Both the position numbers and the translations under genes were made by a program. The notes below the pieces were generated by a model. It saw only the letters and a program-made list of their open reading frames with translations, ran no database searches and was not told the DNA's origin. Shown here piece by piece: positions 4,243 through 17,357 of a stretch of 22,317 bases of DNA (its first letter is position 1; each line of letters begins with the position of its first letter). The stretch covers positions 1 to 22,317 of the forward strand of contig CAYHKQ010000042.1 in the NCBI GenBank assembly GCA_964357255.1, written 5' to 3'. The stretch comes from an uncultured Elusimicrobia bacterium. GTDB taxonomy: Bacteria; Elusimicrobiota; Elusimicrobia; JACQPE01.

Positions 4243-5226
4243 CTAAAATTTAATCGTCAAATTCATTCGATGCGCATTGCCAAGAAGTCCGAACGGTTGA
4301 AACGAGTAATCCAAGCCGATAGCGCCGAGCGCTAAGCCGAATCCGGCTCCGAGTCCGCCTAAGGCCGAAGCTCCCGCGCTTTCTAATCCGTGATAGCCCA
4401 GGCGCAGGGCCAAGGGACGGCCGGAGGATTCTCCTGCGGCCGGCGCGAGTTCTACGCCAGCCGCCAGTTCGTGGGATTTTTCGCCGGGCCTCATTTTGTA
4501 ATCCGCGGCGAGGCGGATGCCGCCGAGATTGAAACCCGCTCCCAGGGCGTAAGTGAGCGGCAGTTTTGAGACCTCGTTGATGAATCGCAGGCCCGGTCCC
4601 GCGTTTTGAATGGCCGCGCCAAACGTCAGTTTTTTGTTGGCCGCCAGCATAATTCCAAAATCGCCGAAGTAGGTGGCGGCCTTGTAGCCAGCGAGGGACT
4701 CTTGAAAATAGGAAAGTTTGAATCCGGCGAGAATTCTCGGATGAATTTGCCGGGCCATGCCCAGGCTAACGGCCAAGTCGCCGGCTGAAAAGTCATCGCT
4801 CAGTCGTCCCGCGCTGTCGCGTCCCGTGAATTGTCCCATGTCCATGCGGTAGAAGCTTAACCCCAGAACGCCGGCTTTGCTAGGAAGAGCCAGCGCGGCA
4901 AATTGCATTTGAGAGCCCTCAAGCCATTCGCTGTGCATTAAGGAAAGCATGGGCCGTTTTATTCGGGCCAAGCCGGAGGGATTGTACGCGAGGGCCAGCG
5001 GGTCATTGGCCAGGGCCGTGTAGGCGCCGCCCAGGGCCGAGGGCCGGGCGCCGATGCCGGCTAAAAGGGATTCAGCGCCATTGGTTCCGGCGGCATACAG
5101 GGGCAAGGTGAATGAGGCAATAAAAGAAAGAAGAGAAGATAACCCGGCTAGAAACCGGGACTTCGTCCCTTCCTTAAAGTACGAAACGCTCGTTTCGTTT
5201 TGTGACCGTCTATTACCTAGGCTCAT
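4243..5226 (-). CDS. PorV/PorQ-like outer-membrane beta-barrel protein. The N-terminal motif GARPSALGGAYTALANDPLALAYNPSGLA resembles the PorV-family signature G-x-R-A-x-G-M-G-G-A...NPAGLA. The protein ends in a C-terminal Phe (LTIKF). The track ORF extends to 5364, but that N-terminal 46 aa are Arg-rich and lack a signal peptide. Met47 at 5226 gives an n-region plus an h-region (FLAGLSSLLSFIASFTLPLYAAG).
   Basis: Track ORF 4243..5364. Motif recognition and the alternating hydrophobic beta-strand pattern with a terminal aromatic residue. The stop TAG at 4243..4245 lies 14 nt before the next gene. The start is uncertain between 5226 and 5364. Confidence 0.65.
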   Translation of the reverse strand: MSLGNRRSQNETSVSYFKEGTKSRFLAGLSSLLSFIASFTLPLYAAGTNGAESLLAGIGARPSALGGAYTALANDPLALAYNPSGLARIKRPMLSLMHSEWLEGSQMQFAALALPSKAGVLGLSFYRMDMGQFTGRDSAGRLSDDFSAGDLAVSLGMARQIHPRILAGFKLSYFQESLAGYKAATYFGDFGIMLAANKKLTFGAAIQNAGPGLRFINEVSKLPLTYALGAGFNLGGIRLAADYKMRPGEKSHELAAGVELAPAAGESSGRPLALRLGYHGLESAGASALGGLGAGFGLALGAIGLDYSFQPFGLLGNAHRMNLTIKF

Positions 5227-5448
5227 TGGCTTGCATTCGGTTCGTCCAAGCTCGCCATCGGCAGCCAGGCTACCCGAGCGTTTACACCGGCCGCTTTGTG
5301 GGGAGTCCAAAGCGGACTGGAGTTTTGTCTGTCGGGCCCTTGGCTTCGCGCCCCTGCCTTTCAAAGATCAGGTTTGCCGTTTCGTGGCGGTCACTTTACG
5401 ACAACCATTAACTTTCACCCCAAAACGGGTTTGCGTCAAGGGGGGTCG

Positions 5449-10634: not shown

Positions 10635-10778
10635 GAAAGCTCGTAACTACCCAGGTCCCCTTGGATTCGTCATACCGGCGAAAGCCGGTATCCAGTGAAG
10701 GCAAATCCAAAGAAGGCCTGGATTCCGGCTTTCGCCGGAATGACGGGGAAGGGGAACCTGAGTAGTTACGAAAGCTCG
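10635..10778. mobile_element. MITE-like palindromic element, about 126 bp core (10644..10769), flanked by a 9-bp direct repeat GAAAGCTCG (10635..10643 and 10770..10778), a putative target-site duplication. Terminal inverted repeats are GTAACTACCCAGGTCCCC and GGGGAACCTGAGTAGTTAC. Internal twin hairpins are TACCGGC-GAAA-GCCGGTA (GNRA tetraloop) and TTCCGGC-TTTC-GCCGGAA.
   Basis: Read from the sequence. It starts 1 nt after the FecR-gene stop. Translating across it gives the spurious N-terminus WIPAFAGMTG of track ORF 10695..11189, a peptide signature I recognise from repeat-derived ORFs in other genomes. Confidence 0.5.
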
Positions 10779-10805: not shown

Positions 10806-11189
10806 ATGATTAAAAAATTAGCAATCATGGCGTTGATCCTTGGGGTCAGCCAAGCGAGCGCTTGTTTGCTCCAATGCCAAGGCATGAGCAGCCATCAAAA
10901 TCGCCGGCCACAAACTTCATCCGCGCATCATTGCTGTCCTAATTCCAAGCGGTCCAAACAAGTTCCTTCTCACCCCGGAGCTGTTTGTTGCCTGGTAAAA
11001 TTTCAATCTCAAGATTCAACCCTGAAAGTCGCTTCGTTTCAAAAGACCGATATCGTTTGGTTGCCGCAGAGTAGCGGCCCGGATTCGGCCCAAGTGTTTC
11101 GCGGCCCGGTCTTGGAATCCGTTCTTCCTCAAAAAATTCCCAAACCTCTTGTTTGGGCTATTCGCCTTCTTCGTTCTCCTCCAGCATAA
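10806..11189 (+). CDS. Small secreted Cys/His-rich protein of 127 aa. Signal peptide MIKKLAIMALILGVSQASA, then CLLQCQG, HHCCP and AVCC motifs. Possible periplasmic metal-binding or redox protein. The track start at 10695 is an artefact of reading through the MITE.
   Basis: In-frame ATG at 10806 followed by a canonical signal peptide. Cys/His clustering. It sits between two MITE-like elements just upstream of the cus-like operon. Whether the gene is real is uncertain. Confidence 0.35.
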   Translation: MIKKLAIMALILGVSQASACLLQCQGMSSHQNRRPQTSSAHHCCPNSKRSKQVPSHPGAVCCLVKFQSQDSTLKVASFQKTDIVWLPQSSGPDSAQVFRGPVLESVLPQKIPKPLVWAIRLLRSPPA

Positions 11190-11263
11190 AAACGCTCTTG
11201 CCGTAAATCCGGCCGTTGCGTTTTATAAGAAGTTTATTGCCGGACCTTAATATTTCGTTTACT

Positions 11264-11400
11264 TGTTTACACGACTCATGCAAAATACGCCCGCTCATGG
11301 TGAGCTTGTCGAACCATGAGCCTGACCAAGGGATTGGCTCATCCTTCGACAAGCTCAGGATGAGCGGGTTCAATCAATTTGCATGACTCGTATTGTTTAT
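11264..11400. mobile_element. Second, unrelated MITE-like element (core 11271..11391). Terminal inverted repeats are ACGACTCATGCAAA and TTTGCATGACTCGT (1 mismatch). It is flanked by a direct repeat TTGTTTA (11264..11270 and 11393..11399). Internal twin hairpins have 8-bp stems (GCTCATGG/CCATGAGC and GCTCATCC/GGATGAGC) and 13-nt loops that are exact reverse complements of each other (TGAGCTTGTCGAA and TTCGACAAGCTCA).
   Basis: Read from the sequence. Translation gives the spurious ORFs 11158..11373 and 11339..11674 containing LSLSKDEP and FDKLTMSG, peptide signatures of a widespread repeat family. Confidence 0.5.
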
Positions 11401-11423
11401 CGTGAGGTCCATATGGAGGTGAA

Positions 11424-12674
11424 TTGAAGATTATTCTAGCGCCAGCGTTTGTGGTCATGCTTATTGTTCCGGCTATGGCTGAGGAGACTGTTTTCATTTC
11501 GACGGGATCCCTTACATTGAAGGAAGCCTTGGCCGAGGCCCGCGAGCGCAGTCCTGAAATTTTAGCCGCCCGTAAATTTTGGGAGGCGCTTGCGAGCAGG
11601 CCGGTTGGGGCGGCCGCGCCGGAGAATCCCCGTCTGGATATTGAAAGAATGTACGCGAGCGGCGGAAGGAACATTATAACAGGGGCCGAGGAAAAAAATT
11701 TTATGCTCAGCCAGGAGATTCCTTTCCCGGCAAAACTTCATTTGAGAAAGCGGGTGGCTTTAAAAGCCGCGGCCATGGCGGAGCAAGGGTATTTGGCCAA
11801 GATCAGGGACGTGCTGGCCCGGGTCCGTTCGATCTATGCCATGCTTTATCTTTCACACAAAAATTTGGAATTGTTTAACGAGAATATTGAGTTGTTGCGC
11901 CGTTTTGCCAAGGTGGCTGAGTCAAAATACGCGGCCGGCCGCGCGAGCCAATCGGACGTCCTTAAGGCCCACGTGGAATTGAGCAAGATGCTTAATATGC
12001 TCGTGGTTGTTAATCAGGACAAGGAGGCGGCCGGGTTCATGCTCAACGCGCTTTTGGGCAGGGCCCCGGAGTCGGCATTAGGGGTTCCGGTTGATCTTGA
12101 TTCAAAAAAATTGGACTACAGTCTCGACGAGCTTGAGCGCCAAGCCTTGCAATCGCGTCCCCAACTGCTCGAAGCGGCGCTCGGCGTGGAGCGGGCCGCC
12201 GGCGCGCTTTCATTGGCCAGATCGGAATTTTTTCCTGATTTCATGCTTCAATACCGCCAGCGCCGCGATTCTATGCGTGGAAGTTCTCAGGACGCGATGA
12301 TTGGATTTACGATCCCTCTTTGGTTTTGGAAGCCCGCGGCCATGGCGGCCGAGGCCAAGTCGGAGTTGCAAATGTTTCAGGCCCAACTGCAGGCCACCAG
12401 GCTCATGACCCTGTCCGAGGTCCGCGCTTCCTTTGTCCGGGCCCGGACAAGCCAGCGCCTGATTGAACTTTATCGCAACGGCGTCTTGGCGCAGGCCGAG
12501 GGGGCGCTTAAAGTGGTTGAGGCGAGTTATCAGGCCGATAAGGCGAGTTTTCTGGACTTGGTGGACGGACAGCGCGCATTTTTGAATTTTAAGCTCGAAT
12601 ACTACCAATACATCGCCGAGTACGAACAACGCCTCGCGGAGCTAGAGCGCGCTGTTGGAAAGGAGTTGCTATGA
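11424..12674 (+). CDS. cusC: Outer-membrane efflux protein of 416 aa (TolC-like outer-membrane factor, CusC/CzcC type). TTG start 4 nt after a GGAGG Shine-Dalgarno sequence, followed by a signal peptide.
   Basis: Signal peptide MKIILAPAFVVMLIVPAMA. Two repeated alpha-helical coiled-coil/beta segments typical of OEP-family proteins. Its stop overlaps the next gene's ATG (ATGA at 12671..12674). Confidence 0.8.
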   Translation: MKIILAPAFVVMLIVPAMAEETVFISTGSLTLKEALAEARERSPEILAARKFWEALASRPVGAAAPENPRLDIERMYASGGRNIITGAEEKNFMLSQEIPFPAKLHLRKRVALKAAAMAEQGYLAKIRDVLARVRSIYAMLYLSHKNLELFNENIELLRRFAKVAESKYAAGRASQSDVLKAHVELSKMLNMLVVVNQDKEAAGFMLNALLGRAPESALGVPVDLDSKKLDYSLDELERQALQSRPQLLEAALGVERAAGALSLARSEFFPDFMLQYRQRRDSMRGSSQDAMIGFTIPLWFWKPAAMAAEAKSELQMFQAQLQATRLMTLSEVRASFVRARTSQRLIELYRNGVLAQAEGALKVVEASYQADKASFLDLVDGQRAFLNFKLEYYQYIAEYEQRLAELERAVGKELL

Positions 12675-14059
12675 GAAAAAATAAACTTGTGATTTTAATC
12701 CTTGCGGTTTTTATCTTTGGAGCCGGCGGCCTGGTTGTGCGGTTTCGCCGTGGAGCAAGTCATGGCGCTGGAGTCGCCCCAGAGGCGGTCCGTTATTATT
12801 GTCCGATGCATCCTACTTATACCTCGGATCGCCCCGGCGCTTGTCCGATTTGCAACATGTCTCTTGTGCCCATGGAGACGCCGGATGCTTCCGGGGCCGC
12901 GGCTCAGAATCCTGCCGGTTCCGGAAAAAAAGTCTGCCTGCTTCACAACTGCAACATGGCCAATTGCCCCATGGAGTTAGAACTCAAACCAGGCCAAAAG
13001 GTGACATGTCCCGTATGCGGGACTCATGTAGAGGAGGCGCAAGAGCTTGCTCAAGGAAAAATTCTCTATTACCGTCATCCCGTGCGGCCGGAGCTAACGT
13101 CCCCGTCGCTCAAAAAGGATGAGATGGGAATGGATTACGTGCCTGTCTATGCCGAGAAACAAGACGTTCGGGTTCCGGTCGGGGGCCAAGCCGGCGTGAC
13201 TTTGACGGCGGAGCGCCGCCGGCTCATTGGCATGGAATCGCAGGCATTGGTAAGACGTGATTTAAAATTTACGGTCAGGGCCAGCGGCCGCGTGGCTTAT
13301 GATCCTGATCTTTACAACGCCATTGCGGAATATCGGGAGGCTGTGCGGACTAAAGAACAGGTCAAGGAGAATTCCTGGCCCGATGTCCAGGATCGTTCCC
13401 AAGCTTTAGTGAGGGCTTCCCTTTTGAGATTGAGACAGTCGGGTTTATCTGAGTCTCAAATTGAAGATATTGCCCGGAGCACGGGGGCGCAGTCAACTAA
13501 TCTCCTTTTGGGAGGTTCCGAAGAAAGCGTCTGGGTCTATGCCCAGATTTATGAGTATGAGATTGGCTTTGTCAAATCCGGCCAGAGAGCCGAAATTACA
13601 ACCCCGGCTTATCGGGGACGGAAATTTTACGGCACGGTTAAAGCGGTGGACCCTATCCTTTCCGCGGAAACCAGGTCTCTTAAAGTCCGTATCGAGGTTC
13701 CCAATCCCGAGGGGCTCTTGAAGCTGGAAATGTATGTCAACGCGGAGATCCGCGTGGACATTGGATTTAAGCTTGCCCTTCCCGAGGAGGCGCTTATGGA
13801 GACGGGCGAGCGTCAACTCGTTTTTATTGACCTTGGCCAGGGGCGCATTGAGCCAAGAGAGGTGCGCATCGGCCAAGAGGCGAAGGGTTATTATGAGGTC
13901 ATCTCCGGCATCCGCGAAGGCGAGAGGGTCGTGACATCGGCCAATTTCCTCATTGACTCCGAGTCGAAACTGAAGGCCGCCATTTCAACCTCGAAGGACA
14001 AGGCCAAGGGCAAGGGCGACTCCCAACCCGCCGATTCTTTTTCGGAACACAGGCATTGA
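12671..14059 (+). CDS. cusB: Efflux RND periplasmic adaptor (membrane-fusion protein) of the CusB/SilB type, 462 aa. N-terminal TM anchor. It has a heavy-metal-binding motif YYCPMHPTYTSDRPGACPICNMSL, an additional Cys cluster CLLHNCNMANCPMELELKPGQKVTCPVCGTHV, and the degenerate YYRHPVRP...KDEMGMDYVPVY motif. The C-terminus is His-rich (SEHRH).
   Basis: The CPMHP...CPICxM motif is characteristic of Cu(I)/Ag(I) adaptor N-domains. Beta-barrel/lipoyl-like segments follow (VKAVDPILSAETRSLKVRIEVPNPEGLLKLEMYVNAEI). Translational coupling with cusC. Confidence 0.85.
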   Translation: MRKNKLVILILAVFIFGAGGLVVRFRRGASHGAGVAPEAVRYYCPMHPTYTSDRPGACPICNMSLVPMETPDASGAAAQNPAGSGKKVCLLHNCNMANCPMELELKPGQKVTCPVCGTHVEEAQELAQGKILYYRHPVRPELTSPSLKKDEMGMDYVPVYAEKQDVRVPVGGQAGVTLTAERRRLIGMESQALVRRDLKFTVRASGRVAYDPDLYNAIAEYREAVRTKEQVKENSWPDVQDRSQALVRASLLRLRQSGLSESQIEDIARSTGAQSTNLLLGGSEESVWVYAQIYEYEIGFVKSGQRAEITTPAYRGRKFYGTVKAVDPILSAETRSLKVRIEVPNPEGLLKLEMYVNAEIRVDIGFKLALPEEALMETGERQLVFIDLGQGRIEPREVRIGQEAKGYYEVISGIREGERVVTSANFLIDSESKLKAAISTSKDKAKGKGDSQPADSFSEHRH

Positions 14060-14066
14060 GGCTTTT

Positions 14067-17000
14067 ATGGTCAGAAAACTTATAGCTTGGTCGGCGCACA
14101 ACAAGTTCCTGGTGATGGCCTTGACGGCCGTTTCCATGGTGGCGGGCTGGTATTGCATGAAGAACATTCGGCTCGACGCGATTCCGGACCTCTCGGACAC
14201 GCAGGTCATCGTCTATTCCCGATGGGATCGCTCTCCCGACATCATCGAGGACCAGGTCACTTATCCGATTATCACCGCTCTCCTGGGAGCTCCGAAGGTC
14301 AAAGCTGTGCGCGGTTTTTCCGACTTCGGCTTCTCCTACGTCTACGTCATTTTCGAGGATGGCGCCGACATCTACTGGGCGCGTTCGCGCGTGCTGGAGT
14401 ACCTGAGCAAAATTCTGCCGCAGATGCCCGATGGTGTGCGCACCGAGCTTGGCCCTGACGCTACGGGCGTGGGCTGGGTTTACCAATACGCCCTTGTCGA
14501 CAAGACGGGCCGGCACAGCCTCGCCGACTTGAGATCCTTCCAGGATTGGACGTTACGCTATTACTTGCAGTCAGTTCCGGGAGTGGCCGAGATCGCTTCT
14601 ATCGGAGGCTTCCAGAAACAATATCAGGTGCAGGTTGACCCCAATGCGCTGGTCGCCTATCGCATCCCGCTCGGCCGAGTCGTTGACGCCATCCGCGACG
14701 GCAATAACGACGTTGGCGGACGGCTTGTCGAGTTCGCGGGCACGGAATACATGATCCGCGGCCGCGGCTACGCTAAGTCGGTCGAAGACATCGAGCAGAT
14801 CGTCGTCGGCCGCGACACGCGCGGCACGCCTGTCCTGGTCAAGAGCATAGCCAAGGTGACCTTGGGCCCTGATATCCGGCGTGGCATCGCTGATCTTGAC
14901 GGCGAGGGCGATGTTGTCGGAGGCATCGTGGTGATGCGCCATGGCGAGAACGCCCTCAACGTCATCAAAAGGGTCAAGGCGCGCCTCGATGAGGTCGGGC
15001 CCTCGTTGCCGGAAGGAGTCGAGATCGTCAAGACCTACGATCGCTCCGAGCTCATCGAAGGCGCCATTGCCACCTTAAAGGATGAGCTTTTTATGCAGAT
15101 GTTGTTGGTCAGCCTTGTCATCCTTGTTTTTCTCTGGCACATTCCCTCCGCGATTGTGCCGATCGTGACGATTCCGATTTCGACGGTGCTGGCCTTTATT
15201 CCTTTGTACTTCATGGGCGTGAGCGCCAACATCATGTCTATCTCAGGGATCATGCTGTCCATCGGCGTGCTCGTGGACGGCTCTATGGTGGAGGTGGAGA
15301 ATGCTTATAAGAAGCTACAACTTTGGGTCGCGGGAGGGCGCAAAGGCGATTTTCACGCCGTGCGCCTGGAGGCGTTGCAGGAGGTCGGGCCCGCGGTGTT
15401 TTACTCTCTAATGGTCGTGGCCGTCGCTTTCTTTCCGATTTTCGCGCTCGTGGACCAGGAGGGCAGGCTCTTTAAGCCGTTGGCCTACACAAAGAACCTG
15501 ACAATGCTCCTGGCGGCGTTTCTCGCCCTGACCCTGGATCCGGCTGTGCGCATGATGTTCTCGCGCATGAACTATTTTGTGTTCAAGCCGAATTGGCTCG
15601 CGTGGACCATCAACCAGATTACCGTCGGCCGCTATTACGCTGAGGAAAAGCACCCGATCAGCAAGGGTTTGTACCGCCTCTACGACCCCGTCTGCCGCTG
15701 GGTGTTGGAGCGGCCGTGGAAGGTGATTGGGGCCGCCGTACTCATCACCCTGGCAACCGTGCCGATTTACCTCAAGCTGGGTTCTGAGTTCATGCCTCCG
15801 CTCAACGAGGGCACGATTTTGTACATGCCGACGACCTTGCCGGGGATATCGGTCACTCAGGCCGCGGACTTGCTTAAGAAGCAGGATGAGATCCTTAAAA
15901 GCTTTCCGGAGGTGGAGCGGGTTTTCGGTAAGGCGGGCCGCGCCCAGACCTCGACCGACCCGGCCCCTTTTTCAATGATGGAGACCACCGTAATCCTCAA
16001 GCCAATGGACCAGTGGAGGAAAAAAGAACGGTGGTATTCCCTGTTCCCGGAGTTCTTCCAGAAGCCATTGCGGCGTGTCTGGTGGGACAGGCTCACCTGG
16101 GACGAACTGGTCGCCGAGATGGACAAGCGCATGAGGTTCCCGGGCGTGACCAACGCCTGGACCATGCCGATTAAGGCGCGCATTGATATGCTGACTACCG
16201 GAGTGCGCACACCCATTGGTATTAAGGTCTACGGGGCGGACCTAGCGCAGATCGAGGCGGTGGGGCAGGAGATCGAAGCGGTCCTTCGCGAGGTTCCGGG
16301 GACGCGCTCCGTCTATGCCGAGCGCACTGCGGGCGGCTATTTCGTTGACTTCCGGCTCAAGCGCGAACAGTTGGCGCGCTATGGTTTATCCGTCAAGGAG
16401 GTCGAGATGGTCATCATGTCAGCCATTGGCGGTGAAACAGTCACGACCACCATCGAAGGCCGAGGGCGCTATAGCGTCAACGTCCGCTACCCGCGCGAGC
16501 TCCGGGACAATCTCCCCAAGCTCAAGCGGGTGCTCGTGGCCACAATGGACGGCGCGCAGATTCCCCTGGCTCAGTTGGCCGACATCGAATTGACGATGGG
16601 CCCGGCGATGATCCGCAACGAGAATGGGATGCTGGCCGGTTACGTCTACGTGGACGTTGCCGGACGCGACATTGGAGGCTATGTCGAGGAAGCCAAGAAG
16701 AAGGTCGCTTCGGTGGTGGACCTTCCTGTCGGCTACGCCATTGGGTGGAGCGGCCAGTATGAAAACATGGTGCGCGTGCGCGAGCGCATGACCCTGGTCC
16801 TTCCTTTGACCCTGGTGATCATCGTCCTGCTCATGTACATGAACACCAAGTCCTGGATCAAGACGGGGATCGTAATGCTGGCGGTGCCATTTTCGCTCAT
16901 CGGCGCCTTCTGGGGGTTCTATCTCCTCGACTACAACCTCTCGGTGGCGGCCTGGGTGGGCATGATCGCGCTCATGGGCCTTGACGCTGAGACGGGCACC

Positions 17001-17357
17001 TTCATGTTGCTCTACCTCGATCTGGCCTACGCCGACGCGGTGCGCGAGGGCCGAATGCGCAACTACGAAGACTTAAAGGAGGCGGTGATGCACGGCGCGG
17101 TCCGGCGCATCCGCCCTAAGATGATGACGGTGTTCACCGATTTTCTCGGCCTGATGCCGATCATGTGGTCGCTCGGCACGGGGGCGGATCTCATGAAGCG
17201 CATTGCCGCGCCCATCATTTTTGGGCTGTTCACGAGTTTTGCGCTCGAGCTTGTGGTCTACCCGGCGATTTTTCTCCTCTGGAAGTGGCATGGCGATATG
17301 CGAAAGGGAACGGTGGACGTAAATCAACTTCCGGTCCCGGAGATTCGGGAGTATTGA
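14067..17357 (+). CDS. cusA: Heavy-metal efflux RND transporter of the CusA/CzcA family (HME-RND), 1,096 aa, with 12 TM helices.
   Basis: Length, TM pattern and conserved HME-RND blocks. The TM4 proton-relay block reads SIGVLVDGSMVEVEN (S-D-E). This matches the monovalent Cu/Ag type A-D-E more closely than the divalent D-D-E type. Confidence 0.93.
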   Translation: MVRKLIAWSAHNKFLVMALTAVSMVAGWYCMKNIRLDAIPDLSDTQVIVYSRWDRSPDIIEDQVTYPIITALLGAPKVKAVRGFSDFGFSYVYVIFEDGADIYWARSRVLEYLSKILPQMPDGVRTELGPDATGVGWVYQYALVDKTGRHSLADLRSFQDWTLRYYLQSVPGVAEIASIGGFQKQYQVQVDPNALVAYRIPLGRVVDAIRDGNNDVGGRLVEFAGTEYMIRGRGYAKSVEDIEQIVVGRDTRGTPVLVKSIAKVTLGPDIRRGIADLDGEGDVVGGIVVMRHGENALNVIKRVKARLDEVGPSLPEGVEIVKTYDRSELIEGAIATLKDELFMQMLLVSLVILVFLWHIPSAIVPIVTIPISTVLAFIPLYFMGVSANIMSISGIMLSIGVLVDGSMVEVENAYKKLQLWVAGGRKGDFHAVRLEALQEVGPAVFYSLMVVAVAFFPIFALVDQEGRLFKPLAYTKNLTMLLAAFLALTLDPAVRMMFSRMNYFVFKPNWLAWTINQITVGRYYAEEKHPISKGLYRLYDPVCRWVLERPWKVIGAAVLITLATVPIYLKLGSEFMPPLNEGTILYMPTTLPGISVTQAADLLKKQDEILKSFPEVERVFGKAGRAQTSTDPAPFSMMETTVILKPMDQWRKKERWYSLFPEFFQKPLRRVWWDRLTWDELVAEMDKRMRFPGVTNAWTMPIKARIDMLTTGVRTPIGIKVYGADLAQIEAVGQEIEAVLREVPGTRSVYAERTAGGYFVDFRLKREQLARYGLSVKEVEMVIMSAIGGETVTTTIEGRGRYSVNVRYPRELRDNLPKLKRVLVATMDGAQIPLAQLADIELTMGPAMIRNENGMLAGYVYVDVAGRDIGGYVEEAKKKVASVVDLPVGYAIGWSGQYENMVRVRERMTLVLPLTLVIIVLLMYMNTKSWIKTGIVMLAVPFSLIGAFWGFYLLDYNLSVAAWVGMIALMGLDAETGTFMLLYLDLAYADAVREGRMRNYEDLKEAVMHGAVRRIRPKMMTVFTDFLGLMPIMWSLGTGADLMKRIAAPIIFGLFTSFALELVVYPAIFLLWKWHGDMRKGTVDVNQLPVPEIREY

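Follow-up and report, generated by a model that had tools for sequence, protein, structure and literature searches.

A transposable element ahead of a metal-efflux operon

Just ahead of a cus-like metal-efflux operon in 22,317 nt of DNA from an uncultured Elusimicrobia bacterium (GenBank contig CAYHKQ010000042.1; this whole stretch is referred to in the following as the window) lies a 122-nt hairpin-forming insert, which raises the question of whether it is a mobile element or a regulatory structure of the operon. An earlier reading, made from the sequence only, had likened the insert to a miniature inverted-repeat transposable element (MITE) with twin hairpins, and had proposed that its mutually complementary loops might form an RNA switch. 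Our results show that the element is transposable, with 15-nt imperfect terminal inverted repeats (TIRs; consensus YACGASTCATGCAAA), a 7-bp AT-rich target-site duplication and recent activity. Positions 11270–11392 of the window very probably represent one copy (~122 bp, subfamily A) of a MITE that is non-autonomous and belongs to an uncultured Elusimicrobiota bacterium of Hainich groundwater well H41. The interior of the element is an inverted heterodimer of hairpins similar to repetitive extragenic palindromes (REPs). The element has the following parts.

11263–11269, no strand: left copy of the target-site duplication, TTGTTTA (sequence reading and repeat finder)
11270–11284, + strand: left TIR, C-ACGACTCATGCAAA, with ACGACTCATGCAAA itself at 11271–11284; family consensus YACGASTCATGCAAA
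11285–11292, no strand: left linker from TIR to hairpin, in which subfamilies A and B differ (alignment)
11293–11321, + strand: hairpin module 1 (GG-type), GCTCATGG-TGAGCTTGTCGAA-CCATGAGC, whose loop consensus reads on the + strand
11322–11337, no strand: spacer between the modules, forming the apical loop of the long hairpin; unconserved between subfamilies
11338–11366, − strand: hairpin module 2, CC-type, reading GCTCATCC-TGAGCTTGTCGAA-GGATGAGC on the − strand (repeat finder)
11367–11377, no strand: right linker from hairpin to TIR (alignment)
11378–11392, − strand: right TIR, TTTGCATGACTCGT-A, with TTTGCATGACTCGT itself at 11378–11391; one mismatch to the left TIR, fixed in subfamily A
11393–11399, no strand: right copy of the target-site duplication, TTGTTTA (sequence reading and repeat finder)

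The sequence-only reading had described the direct repeats, the TIRs, the 8-bp stems, the reverse-complementary loops, the GG/CC swap and a 32-nt distance to the operon start, and all of these statements hold. The 14-nt TIR arms ACGACTCATGCAAA and TTTGCATGACTCGT are complementary at 13/14 positions. The direct repeats stand one base outside the ACGAC...GTCGT ends, and joining the element's flanks gives ...TTTCGTTTAC-TTGTTTA-TCGTGAGG...; the calculated chance of a 7-nt direct repeat at matching offsets is ~6 × 10−5 per offset. Both stems are 8 bp long, each reaching 9 bp via a T-A pair; at the top two pairs, one hairpin has GG/CC where its partner has CC/GG. The 13-nt loops, TGAGCTTGTCGAA in hairpin 1 and TTCGACAAGCTCA in hairpin 2, are exact reverse complements. 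Folded as RNA, both strands were far more stable than shuffled sequences, with a minimum free energy of −69 kcal/mol for the + strand, compared to −39.5 ± 3.7 in shuffles (z = −8.1), and −72.5 kcal/mol for the − strand (z = −8.5); none of 200 shuffles was as good in either case. A chance palindrome is ruled out by these scores (z = −8) and by the many copies. The 29-nt hairpin and the 13-nt loop had no second occurrence in the window, where 0 to 0.03 matches were expected.

Copies and insertion sites

The MITE-like character was borne out by a copy search: the genome population of the window holds multiple copies, and the 7-bp duplication differs from copy to copy. Scanning metagenomes for the outer repeat (ACGASTCATGCAAA, a gap of 2–14 nt, then CGCTCAT) gave 16 contigs, 14 of which came from Hainich groundwater well H41 (Hain-H41). 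The other two, which came from other metagenomes and were unrelated in composition (r = 0.10 and 0.56), probably matched by chance. Tetranucleotide correlation with the window was 0.79–0.94 for 13 of the 14 H41 contigs and 0.67 for the 1.1-kb contig L134; pieces of the window itself gave 0.78–0.90, and unrelated genomes at most 0.78. Homologues annotated as Elusimicrobiota metagenome-assembled genomes (MAGs) identify the host lineage, and the site is well H41. Beyond the window copy, six full copies and eight half copies at contig ends were recovered, the latter as expected of a repeat that breaks assemblies, and the H41 population holds at least 11 insertion sites.

The copies fall into two subfamilies that have the TIRs and both hairpins in common, but not the linkers. 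Subfamily A (~122 nt) comprises the window copy, L128 and the contig-end copies L129 and L133; the difference within it amounts to one nucleotide. Subfamily B (132 nt) comprises L122, L124, L130, L132 and L136, which are 100% identical across 132 nt, together with six contig-end halves. The left TIR is unchanged in 7/7 aligned full copies, and the TIRs are perfect in subfamily B. The target-site duplications of the full copies are as follows.

Window: TTGTTTA / TTGTTTA, perfect
L122: TTATTAT, perfect
L130: TGAATAA, perfect
L132: TTTTTAA, perfect
L128: TTGATAA, perfect
L124: ATAATAA / TTAATAA, 6/7 match
L136: TAACAAA / TAACAGA, 6/7 match

Five of these 7-bp AT-rich duplications are perfect, all of them different 7-mers, and two more match at 6/7. 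The family shares with MITEs the TIRs, a duplication of fixed length that varies by copy, dispersed copies and a small non-coding size (122–132 nt). It marks recent transposition in an uncultured Elusimicrobiota genome and is a likely cause of contig breaks. Two copies carry additional end sequences: in L128, the terminal 16-mer ACGACTCATGCAAAAT is repeated four times in tandem at 1857–1918, and L136 has an additional terminal fragment ahead of the target-site duplication at 2179–2216. The ends of the MITE can thus undergo duplication.

We propose that a transposase encoded elsewhere would move the whole unit. It would probably be of the DDE type, as suggested by the TIRs and the fixed-length duplication; its class can only be inferred because no transposase gene bounded by these ends was found in the window or the retrieved contigs. 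The hairpin pair would either be carried along as conserved cargo or be a module that comes to rest in palindrome centres.

Several points weigh against this interpretation. No autonomous insertion sequence (IS) with these TIRs was present in the window or in the retrieved contigs, and no empty site was recovered for the window copy or any other copy; three contigs span the window site, and all of them carry the element or break nearby. The host of the other copies was assigned by composition and sampling site, not by binning. The interpretation does not account for the occurrence of the same core in unrelated shells of unrelated phyla, as described below, and any effect of the element on the efflux operon is conjecture.

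The hairpin module across phyla

To look beyond the H41 population, one genome per GTDB species was scanned with the pattern GAGCTTGTCGAANNATGAGC, which fixes only the loop and the 3′ arm of the module. The module (stem, TGAGCYTGTCGAA loop, stem) was found at 119 or more genome loci in about 13 phyla, compared to ~17 matches expected by chance (calculated). Among the listed matches, the proteobacterial hosts included Alpha-, Beta- and Gammaproteobacteria (Methylococcaceae, Gallionella, Lysobacter). Further hosts included Chloroflexota, Acidobacteriota, Vulcanimicrobiota/Eremiobacterota, Armatimonadota, Fibrobacterota, Parcubacteria, Dojkabacteria, Bacteroidota/Chlorobiota, Tectimicrobiota, Binatia, Planctomycetota, Marinimicrobia and one other Elusimicrobia MAG. 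Three of the hosts are cultured: Methylobacter tundripaludum OWC-G53F, Methylovulum psychrotolerans Sph1 and Lysobacter sp. Root916. None of 5,426 E. coli genomes had the module, and among 72,556 PLSDB plasmids it occurred in just two, both megaplasmids. Among 59 pattern matches in phage-like contigs of IMG/VR, ~18 were true hairpins, the rest being the number expected by chance.

The consensus, nnCCGCTCATCC-TGAGCTTGTCGAA-GGATGAGCGnnn, describes a 33-nt hairpin with a covarying stem of 8–10 bp. The 5′ arm, which the pattern does not set, was complementary at stem positions 1–6 in 84–97% of 136 copies, and the free NN stem positions covaried (CC/GG 48, GG/CC 34, GC/GC 24; AT/AT, AA/TT and GT/AC rarer). 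Partner copies found only by their nearness to a scan match had the loop TGAGC[C/T]TGTCGAA in 54 of 66 cases, with diverse, compensated stems. In an alignment of 141 unique modules, 81% of the cells were paired, versus 64% in shuffles and at most 44% in slid controls, and changes on both sides of a pair affected 317 cells versus 140 in shuffles. Loop columns 13–17 and 19–25 were conserved to at least 90%, columns 5–10 paired with 28–33 in 76–98% of copies, and the arms were complementary to 16 bp or more in ~40% of modules. Our covariance model, R1, recognized module 1 of the window at 11289–11325 (+ strand; 47 bits, E = 1.5 × 10−11) and module 2 at 11333–11369 (− strand; 50.9 bits, E = 1.1 × 10−12), and detected no third module copy in the window.

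On the strand carrying TGAGCYTGTCGAA, G·T mismatches outnumbered A·C mismatches, 51 versus 26, which points to selection acting on this strand in single-stranded form, as RNA or DNA. In the mechanism that we propose, it is on this strand that the hairpin pair would act single-stranded. We conjecture that tandem sheared G·A pairs close the loop (T13-A25, G14·A24, A15·G23, G16-C22), which would account for the invariant loop bases and the strand asymmetry; nearest-neighbour folding did not predict such pairs in the loop.

Most modules were intergenic, with 18 between convergent and 7 between divergent genes, and their orientation relative to neighbouring genes was unbiased (14 versus 9). In Alphaproteobacteria (L017, L035, L040 and L086), the loop has grown into tandem arrays, (GAGCTTGTCGAAGGAT)n, likely by slippage between its two TGAGC motifs. 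Whole hairpins repeated head to tail about every 40 nt were found in MAGs of the Bacteroidetes/Chlorobi group and of Ca. Cybelea (Vulcanimicrobiota/Eremiobacterota-type; L069, L081 and L105). One arm variant, GCTCAGGAYGAACG (e.g., in L014 and L112), is identical over 14–15 nt to the 5′ region of bacterial 16S rRNA, GGCTCAGGAYGAACGCTGGCGGC; this is the only variant with such a likeness, and we consider it probably a coincidence.

Two open reading frames (ORFs) run across the window element, at 11216–11386 (+ strand) and 11158–11373 (− strand), encoding 56 and 71 amino acids with the peptides ...VSLSNHE...FDKLR... and ...LSLSKDE...FDKLT..., respectively. Similar peptides presumably occur in many database "hypothetical proteins". 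These peptides are translation artefacts of the repeat, and the ORFs crossing the element are spurious; the module family thus accounts for a class of spurious hypothetical proteins (...VSLSNHE..., ...FDKLR...) produced by gene callers.

Heterodimers and complementary loops

The GG/CC swap between the two hairpins, which had been read as preserving each local hairpin at the expense of the global palindrome, is real, but it is not a local adaptation. Among 38 unique inverted pairs in other genomes, 33 were heterodimers of a CC-type module with a GG- or GC-type module and only 5 were homodimers, compared to ~15 homodimers expected from the type frequencies (p ~3 × 10−4, calculated). The swap therefore reflects an inherited, family-wide heterodimer rule, under which each local hairpin stays intact and the global palindrome remains imperfect, as also happens in the bacterial interspersed mosaic elements (BIMEs) of enterobacteria. 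The complementary loops, in contrast, are no special design: any inverted pair of one hairpin has them, simply because the two copies lie in opposite orientation, and their exactness is not maintained. It is lost in subfamily B (C versus T at loop position 6), and the loops differ between the partners in 23 of the 38 twins of other genomes.

Unrelated shells around the same core

In other lineages, the same module core lies within unrelated outer inverted repeats, three of which are listed here.

CTAGGYTCTGTTGACATT: shell around the module core in a groundwater Chloroflexi MAG
AGGACTTCCTCRCTTT: shell around the module core in a Parcubacteria contig
AAAATGGATACA: shell around the module core in another Elusimicrobia MAG

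In the Hainich contig L130, the core is also found inside a different shell. The TIR core of the window element, CTCATGC/GCATGAG (11271–11284 / 11378–11391), recurs unchanged in a common variant of the module's arms, CCTCATGC...GCATGAGG; by this likeness, the TIR shell may be a decayed outer hairpin module.

The window contains another element, at 10641–10771, to which the present one had been called unrelated. This is correct for the shells, which differ, but not for the architecture: both consist of an inverted pair of a widespread REP-like hairpin in a TIR shell. In the first element, a 20-nt TIR shell (TCGTAACTACCCAGGTCCCC / GGGAACCTGAGTAGTTACGA) encloses an inverted pair of CGTC-ATACCGGC-GAAA-GCCGGTAT-CCAG hairpins. 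CGTC-1 REPs, which include the Neisseria dRS3 and Rickettsia RPE-6 repeats, are defined by a CGTC tag that stays unpaired, a stem of 8 bp whose first bases are AT, a loop of 4 nt and a CCA tail (Di Nocera et al. 2013, PMC3733652); the core of the first element fits this definition (dRS3/RPE-6 type). CGTC repeats occur in five phyla without a linked transposase and are, in one species, always nested in longer palindromes (PMC3733652). The end of the first element's shell also occurs in L123, and in a Chitinispirillaceae MAG (L047) a similar shell encloses a TGAGCTTGTCGAA twin. At 1490–1570 of L123, a CGTC-1 hairpin has two module-like loops (TTCGACTAGCGCTCA and TGAGCGGAGTCGAA) within its own loop, apparently a case of a REP of one type nested in the apex of a second type. 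We infer that REP-like units are prone to occupy palindrome centres, with MITE shells as one of their vehicles.

Search for a cognate enzyme

An all-against-all BLASTP comparison of 2,720 ORFs from 119 loci of the genome scan identified no family recurring beside the module. A tblastn search with IS200 TnpA and E. coli RayT revealed a degraded Y1 gene 1.1 kb from a twin in L003, and an intact gene resembling a REP-associated tyrosine transposase (RAYT) in the Parcubacteria contig L053 (168–773; Y1_Tnp 29 bits, NF047646 55 bits). Just upstream of the latter, at 55–150, is a GTAG-type REP doublet (GTAGGGGTTGACC...GGTCTGCCCCTAC), and a second copy of the doublet lies in frame inside the gene (445–540). 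The cognate repeat of the L053 gene is accordingly a repeat other than the module.

Alternative explanations

An unlikely alternative to a MITE is that the element is a REPIN, i.e., a hairpin-forming REP doublet, mobilised via single-stranded DNA by a Y1/HUH tyrosine transposase of the RAYT type, with the outer repeat as its lower stem. Target-site duplications are not produced by REPINs or by mobility of the IS200/IS605 type, whereas five perfect and two near-perfect 7-bp duplications flank the unit described here. The module also has no GTAG tag, no gene family recurs beside it in 119 loci, and the sole intact RAYT-like gene that we met is flanked and interrupted by a GTAG-type doublet instead. 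The core itself does resemble a REPIN: two inverted palindromic units surround a short spacer, singlets and doublets are both common, the modules are mostly extragenic with a preference for convergent (18) over divergent (7) gene pairs, and the G·T excess on one strand fits a single-strand function. Heterodimeric doublets are, moreover, known among enterobacterial REPs (PMC3733652).

The remaining alternatives assign the structure a function for the host. One is that the element is a cis-regulatory RNA switch of the cus-like operon, acting by kissing loops or by refolding into one long hairpin, or that it supplies or occludes a promoter. In favour of this are its location, as the first gene starts 32 nt downstream and the flanking genes share its strand, and the perfect complementarity of the loops in the window copy; a related twin also lies within an expressed small RNA (sRNA) candidate of Aggregatibacter, for which the Rfam RF02901 match reached only 32.8 bits. 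We consider this very unlikely. The proposed switch between kissing loops and a long hairpin found no thermodynamic support, since the long hairpin (−68 kcal/mol) is favoured by 30–43 kcal/mol over the twin hairpins (−24.5, or −38.5 with the TIR stem), leaving the twin state with a Boltzmann weight of ~10−22 or less. Hairpin 1 is predicted to form first during synthesis and to be displaced once hairpin 2 has been made. Neither a sigma-70-like promoter on the + strand (11190–11423) nor a T-run terminator on the operon strand after a hairpin in this spacer was predicted, near-identical copies are found at 10 or more other, unrelated sites, the element is missing from homologous operons, and the loops are no longer complementary throughout in subfamily B and 23/38 twins elsewhere. 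Equally improbable, in our view, is that the module is a host-beneficial structure (for instance a nucleoid site, a target of RNase or gyrase, or a stabiliser of mRNA 3′ ends) that selection has kept in many phyla, with the MITE shell as one of several vehicles. A nearly invariant loop and covarying stems across about 13 phyla would fit such a role, as would the preference for intergenic sites after gene ends, and REPs hold such roles in E. coli (PMC3733652). However, the patchy distribution, with no module in 5,426 E. coli genomes and only 2/72,556 plasmids positive, argues against general housekeeping, there is no orientation bias to neighbouring genes (14 versus 9), and the recent bursts of identical copies look selfish.

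Comparison with known systems

The bacterial MITEs Correia (Neisseria), ERIC/IRU, RUP and Nezha are likewise ~120–130 bp long, lack an ORF, have TIRs and a fixed-length duplication, occur in many copies per genome, fold into a long hairpin and are often found near gene starts or ends. Unlike these, the present element has an interior that is conserved besides the TIRs and is common to elements of other phyla with unrelated TIRs. We can name no MITE family that matches the 7-bp AT-rich duplication and the YACGASTCATGCAAA ends, and the parent IS is not known to us.

The core shares with REPINs (Bertels and Rainey 2011, PMC3116915) an inverted palindromic pair that forms a hairpin, a short spacer, singlets and doublets, extragenic location and stem covariation, but differs from them in lacking the GTAG tag and in moving with a target-site duplication, and no associated RAYT was found at the loci compared. 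The module consensus has no unpaired GTAG (GYRG) tag, which is the criterion of the GTAG-tagged REP superfamily. REP/RAYT systems are lineage-specific, whereas the module keeps one loop across phyla. In this respect it is more like the CGTC-tagged REP superfamily (including Neisseria dRS3 and Rickettsia RPE-4/6), which also spans several phyla, has no dedicated transposase, consists mostly of inverted dimers and can nest in longer palindromes, as in H. neapolitanus (PMC3733652). The 5′ motif of the module, YSTC-AT, resembles the CGTC/TGTC/CCTC tag of these repeats, which by definition is unpaired and precedes a stem of 8–9 bp with AT at its start. However, the tag, loop and tail of CGTC REPs do not fit: the "tag" of the module, YSYTC-AT, is base-paired with the 3′ arm GAGC/GAGG, the loop has 13 nt rather than 4–5, and there is no 3′ CCA tail. 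The two dimer topologies are also about equally common in the module (21 versus 17), whereas CGTC REPs are mainly head-to-head. The BIMEs of E. coli, with alternating Y and Z REPs, are likewise obligate dimers of two unit variants that form an imperfect global palindrome, but they have an unrelated sequence, are limited to enterobacteria and contain sites for integration host factor (IHF) and gyrase. In sum, the element functions in the manner of a MITE. Its core functions in the manner of a REP doublet (a BIME-like heterodimer or a REPIN), but lacks the defining features of both named REP superfamilies.

At gathering thresholds, Rfam contained no family that matched the element; at E-value thresholds, the only matches were meaningless miRNA families and RF02901 (AaHKsRNA41, Aggregatibacter sRNA 41), below its threshold. 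Model positions 7–96 of RF02901 hold GCUGAgCUUGcCGAAGCAU...AUGgUUCGgCAAGcUCAgC, the same twin module as one long hairpin; the score of 32.8 bits compares with a gathering score of 97, only these positions of 187 match, and the family is a species-level sRNA candidate rather than an account of the repeat class. Integron attC sites were rejected by inspection: their R″/R′ core sites (RYYYAAC ... GTTRRRY) fit neither end on either strand.

Full-text searches with DNA strings and with the encoded peptides gave no description of the module within their coverage, which excludes figures and subscription journals, and the motif was absent from the text and supplements of the REP papers, the figures of which are not searchable. 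On this limited evidence of novelty, the cross-phylum hairpin heterodimer seems to represent a variant of REPs that has not been described. A broader proposal, possible but doubtful, is that the TGAGCYTGTCGAA-loop hairpin represents a third pan-bacterial REP superfamily beside GTAG and CGTC, reaching bacteria of the candidate phyla radiation (CPR) and some phage contigs. Its way of spreading would place it at the apex of other palindromes (MITEs and other REPs among them), and it would need either a trans-acting enzyme or a conserved host factor that reads the loop on one strand. A loop kept to the nucleotide, together with the heterodimer rule, inside unrelated shells in about 13 phyla bears on the question that the REP field has left for CGTC repeats, namely how palindromic units without a transposase spread and persist across phyla. 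The covariance model R1 and the three culturable carriers provide handles on the module family.

Operon context

The genes that surround the element in the window are as follows.

10806–11189, + strand: small Cys/His-rich ORF of 127 amino acids with no Pfam match; the element lies in the spacer 3′ of it
11424–12674, + strand: TolC/OEP-family gene, first of a resistance-nodulation-division (RND) heavy-metal efflux operon, with a TTG start at 11424
12671–14059, + strand: CusB-like gene with a heavy-metal-binding domain, second in the operon
14067–17357, + strand: CusA/AcrB-like gene, third in the operon

The element ends 32 nt before the TTG start of the tolC-like gene. The spacer between the small ORF and this gene is 234 nt, or 105 nt plus the 129 nt of the element and one copy of the duplication, and the window copy would have landed in a spacer of ~105 nt. 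In homologous Elusimicrobiota operons, which are without the element, there are ~100 nt ahead of tolC in the two where this could be judged, and in a third the upstream ORF overlaps tolC. Since the nearest orthologues are only 60–64% identical, these operons are too distant to give an exact empty site. If co-transcribed with the small ORF and tolC, the element would form one long imperfect hairpin of ~45 bp with two 2 × 2 internal loops, which could process, stabilise or attenuate the mRNA rather than act as a switch. A predicted helix of this length is a plausible RNase III or stability determinant.

By eye, a similar small ORF (HxCC...CCL) lies upstream of the tolC homologue in L196; its tblastn match had only E = 9.0. 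An antitoxin remnant on the − strand at 11158–11260 was considered and rejected, as it had no Pfam support. In L194, from another Elusimicrobia MAG, the spacer upstream of the tolC homologue (300–400) holds a different, perfect palindrome of 58 nt, which contains GGGGACAC and fits the GGGGWSAS motif reported for TIRs flanking tyrosine-transposase genes. Elsewhere in the window, on the − strand at 5257–5388, a c-di-GMP-I riboswitch aptamer (40.1 bits; gathering score 35) was found upstream of the − strand ORF at 4243–5364.

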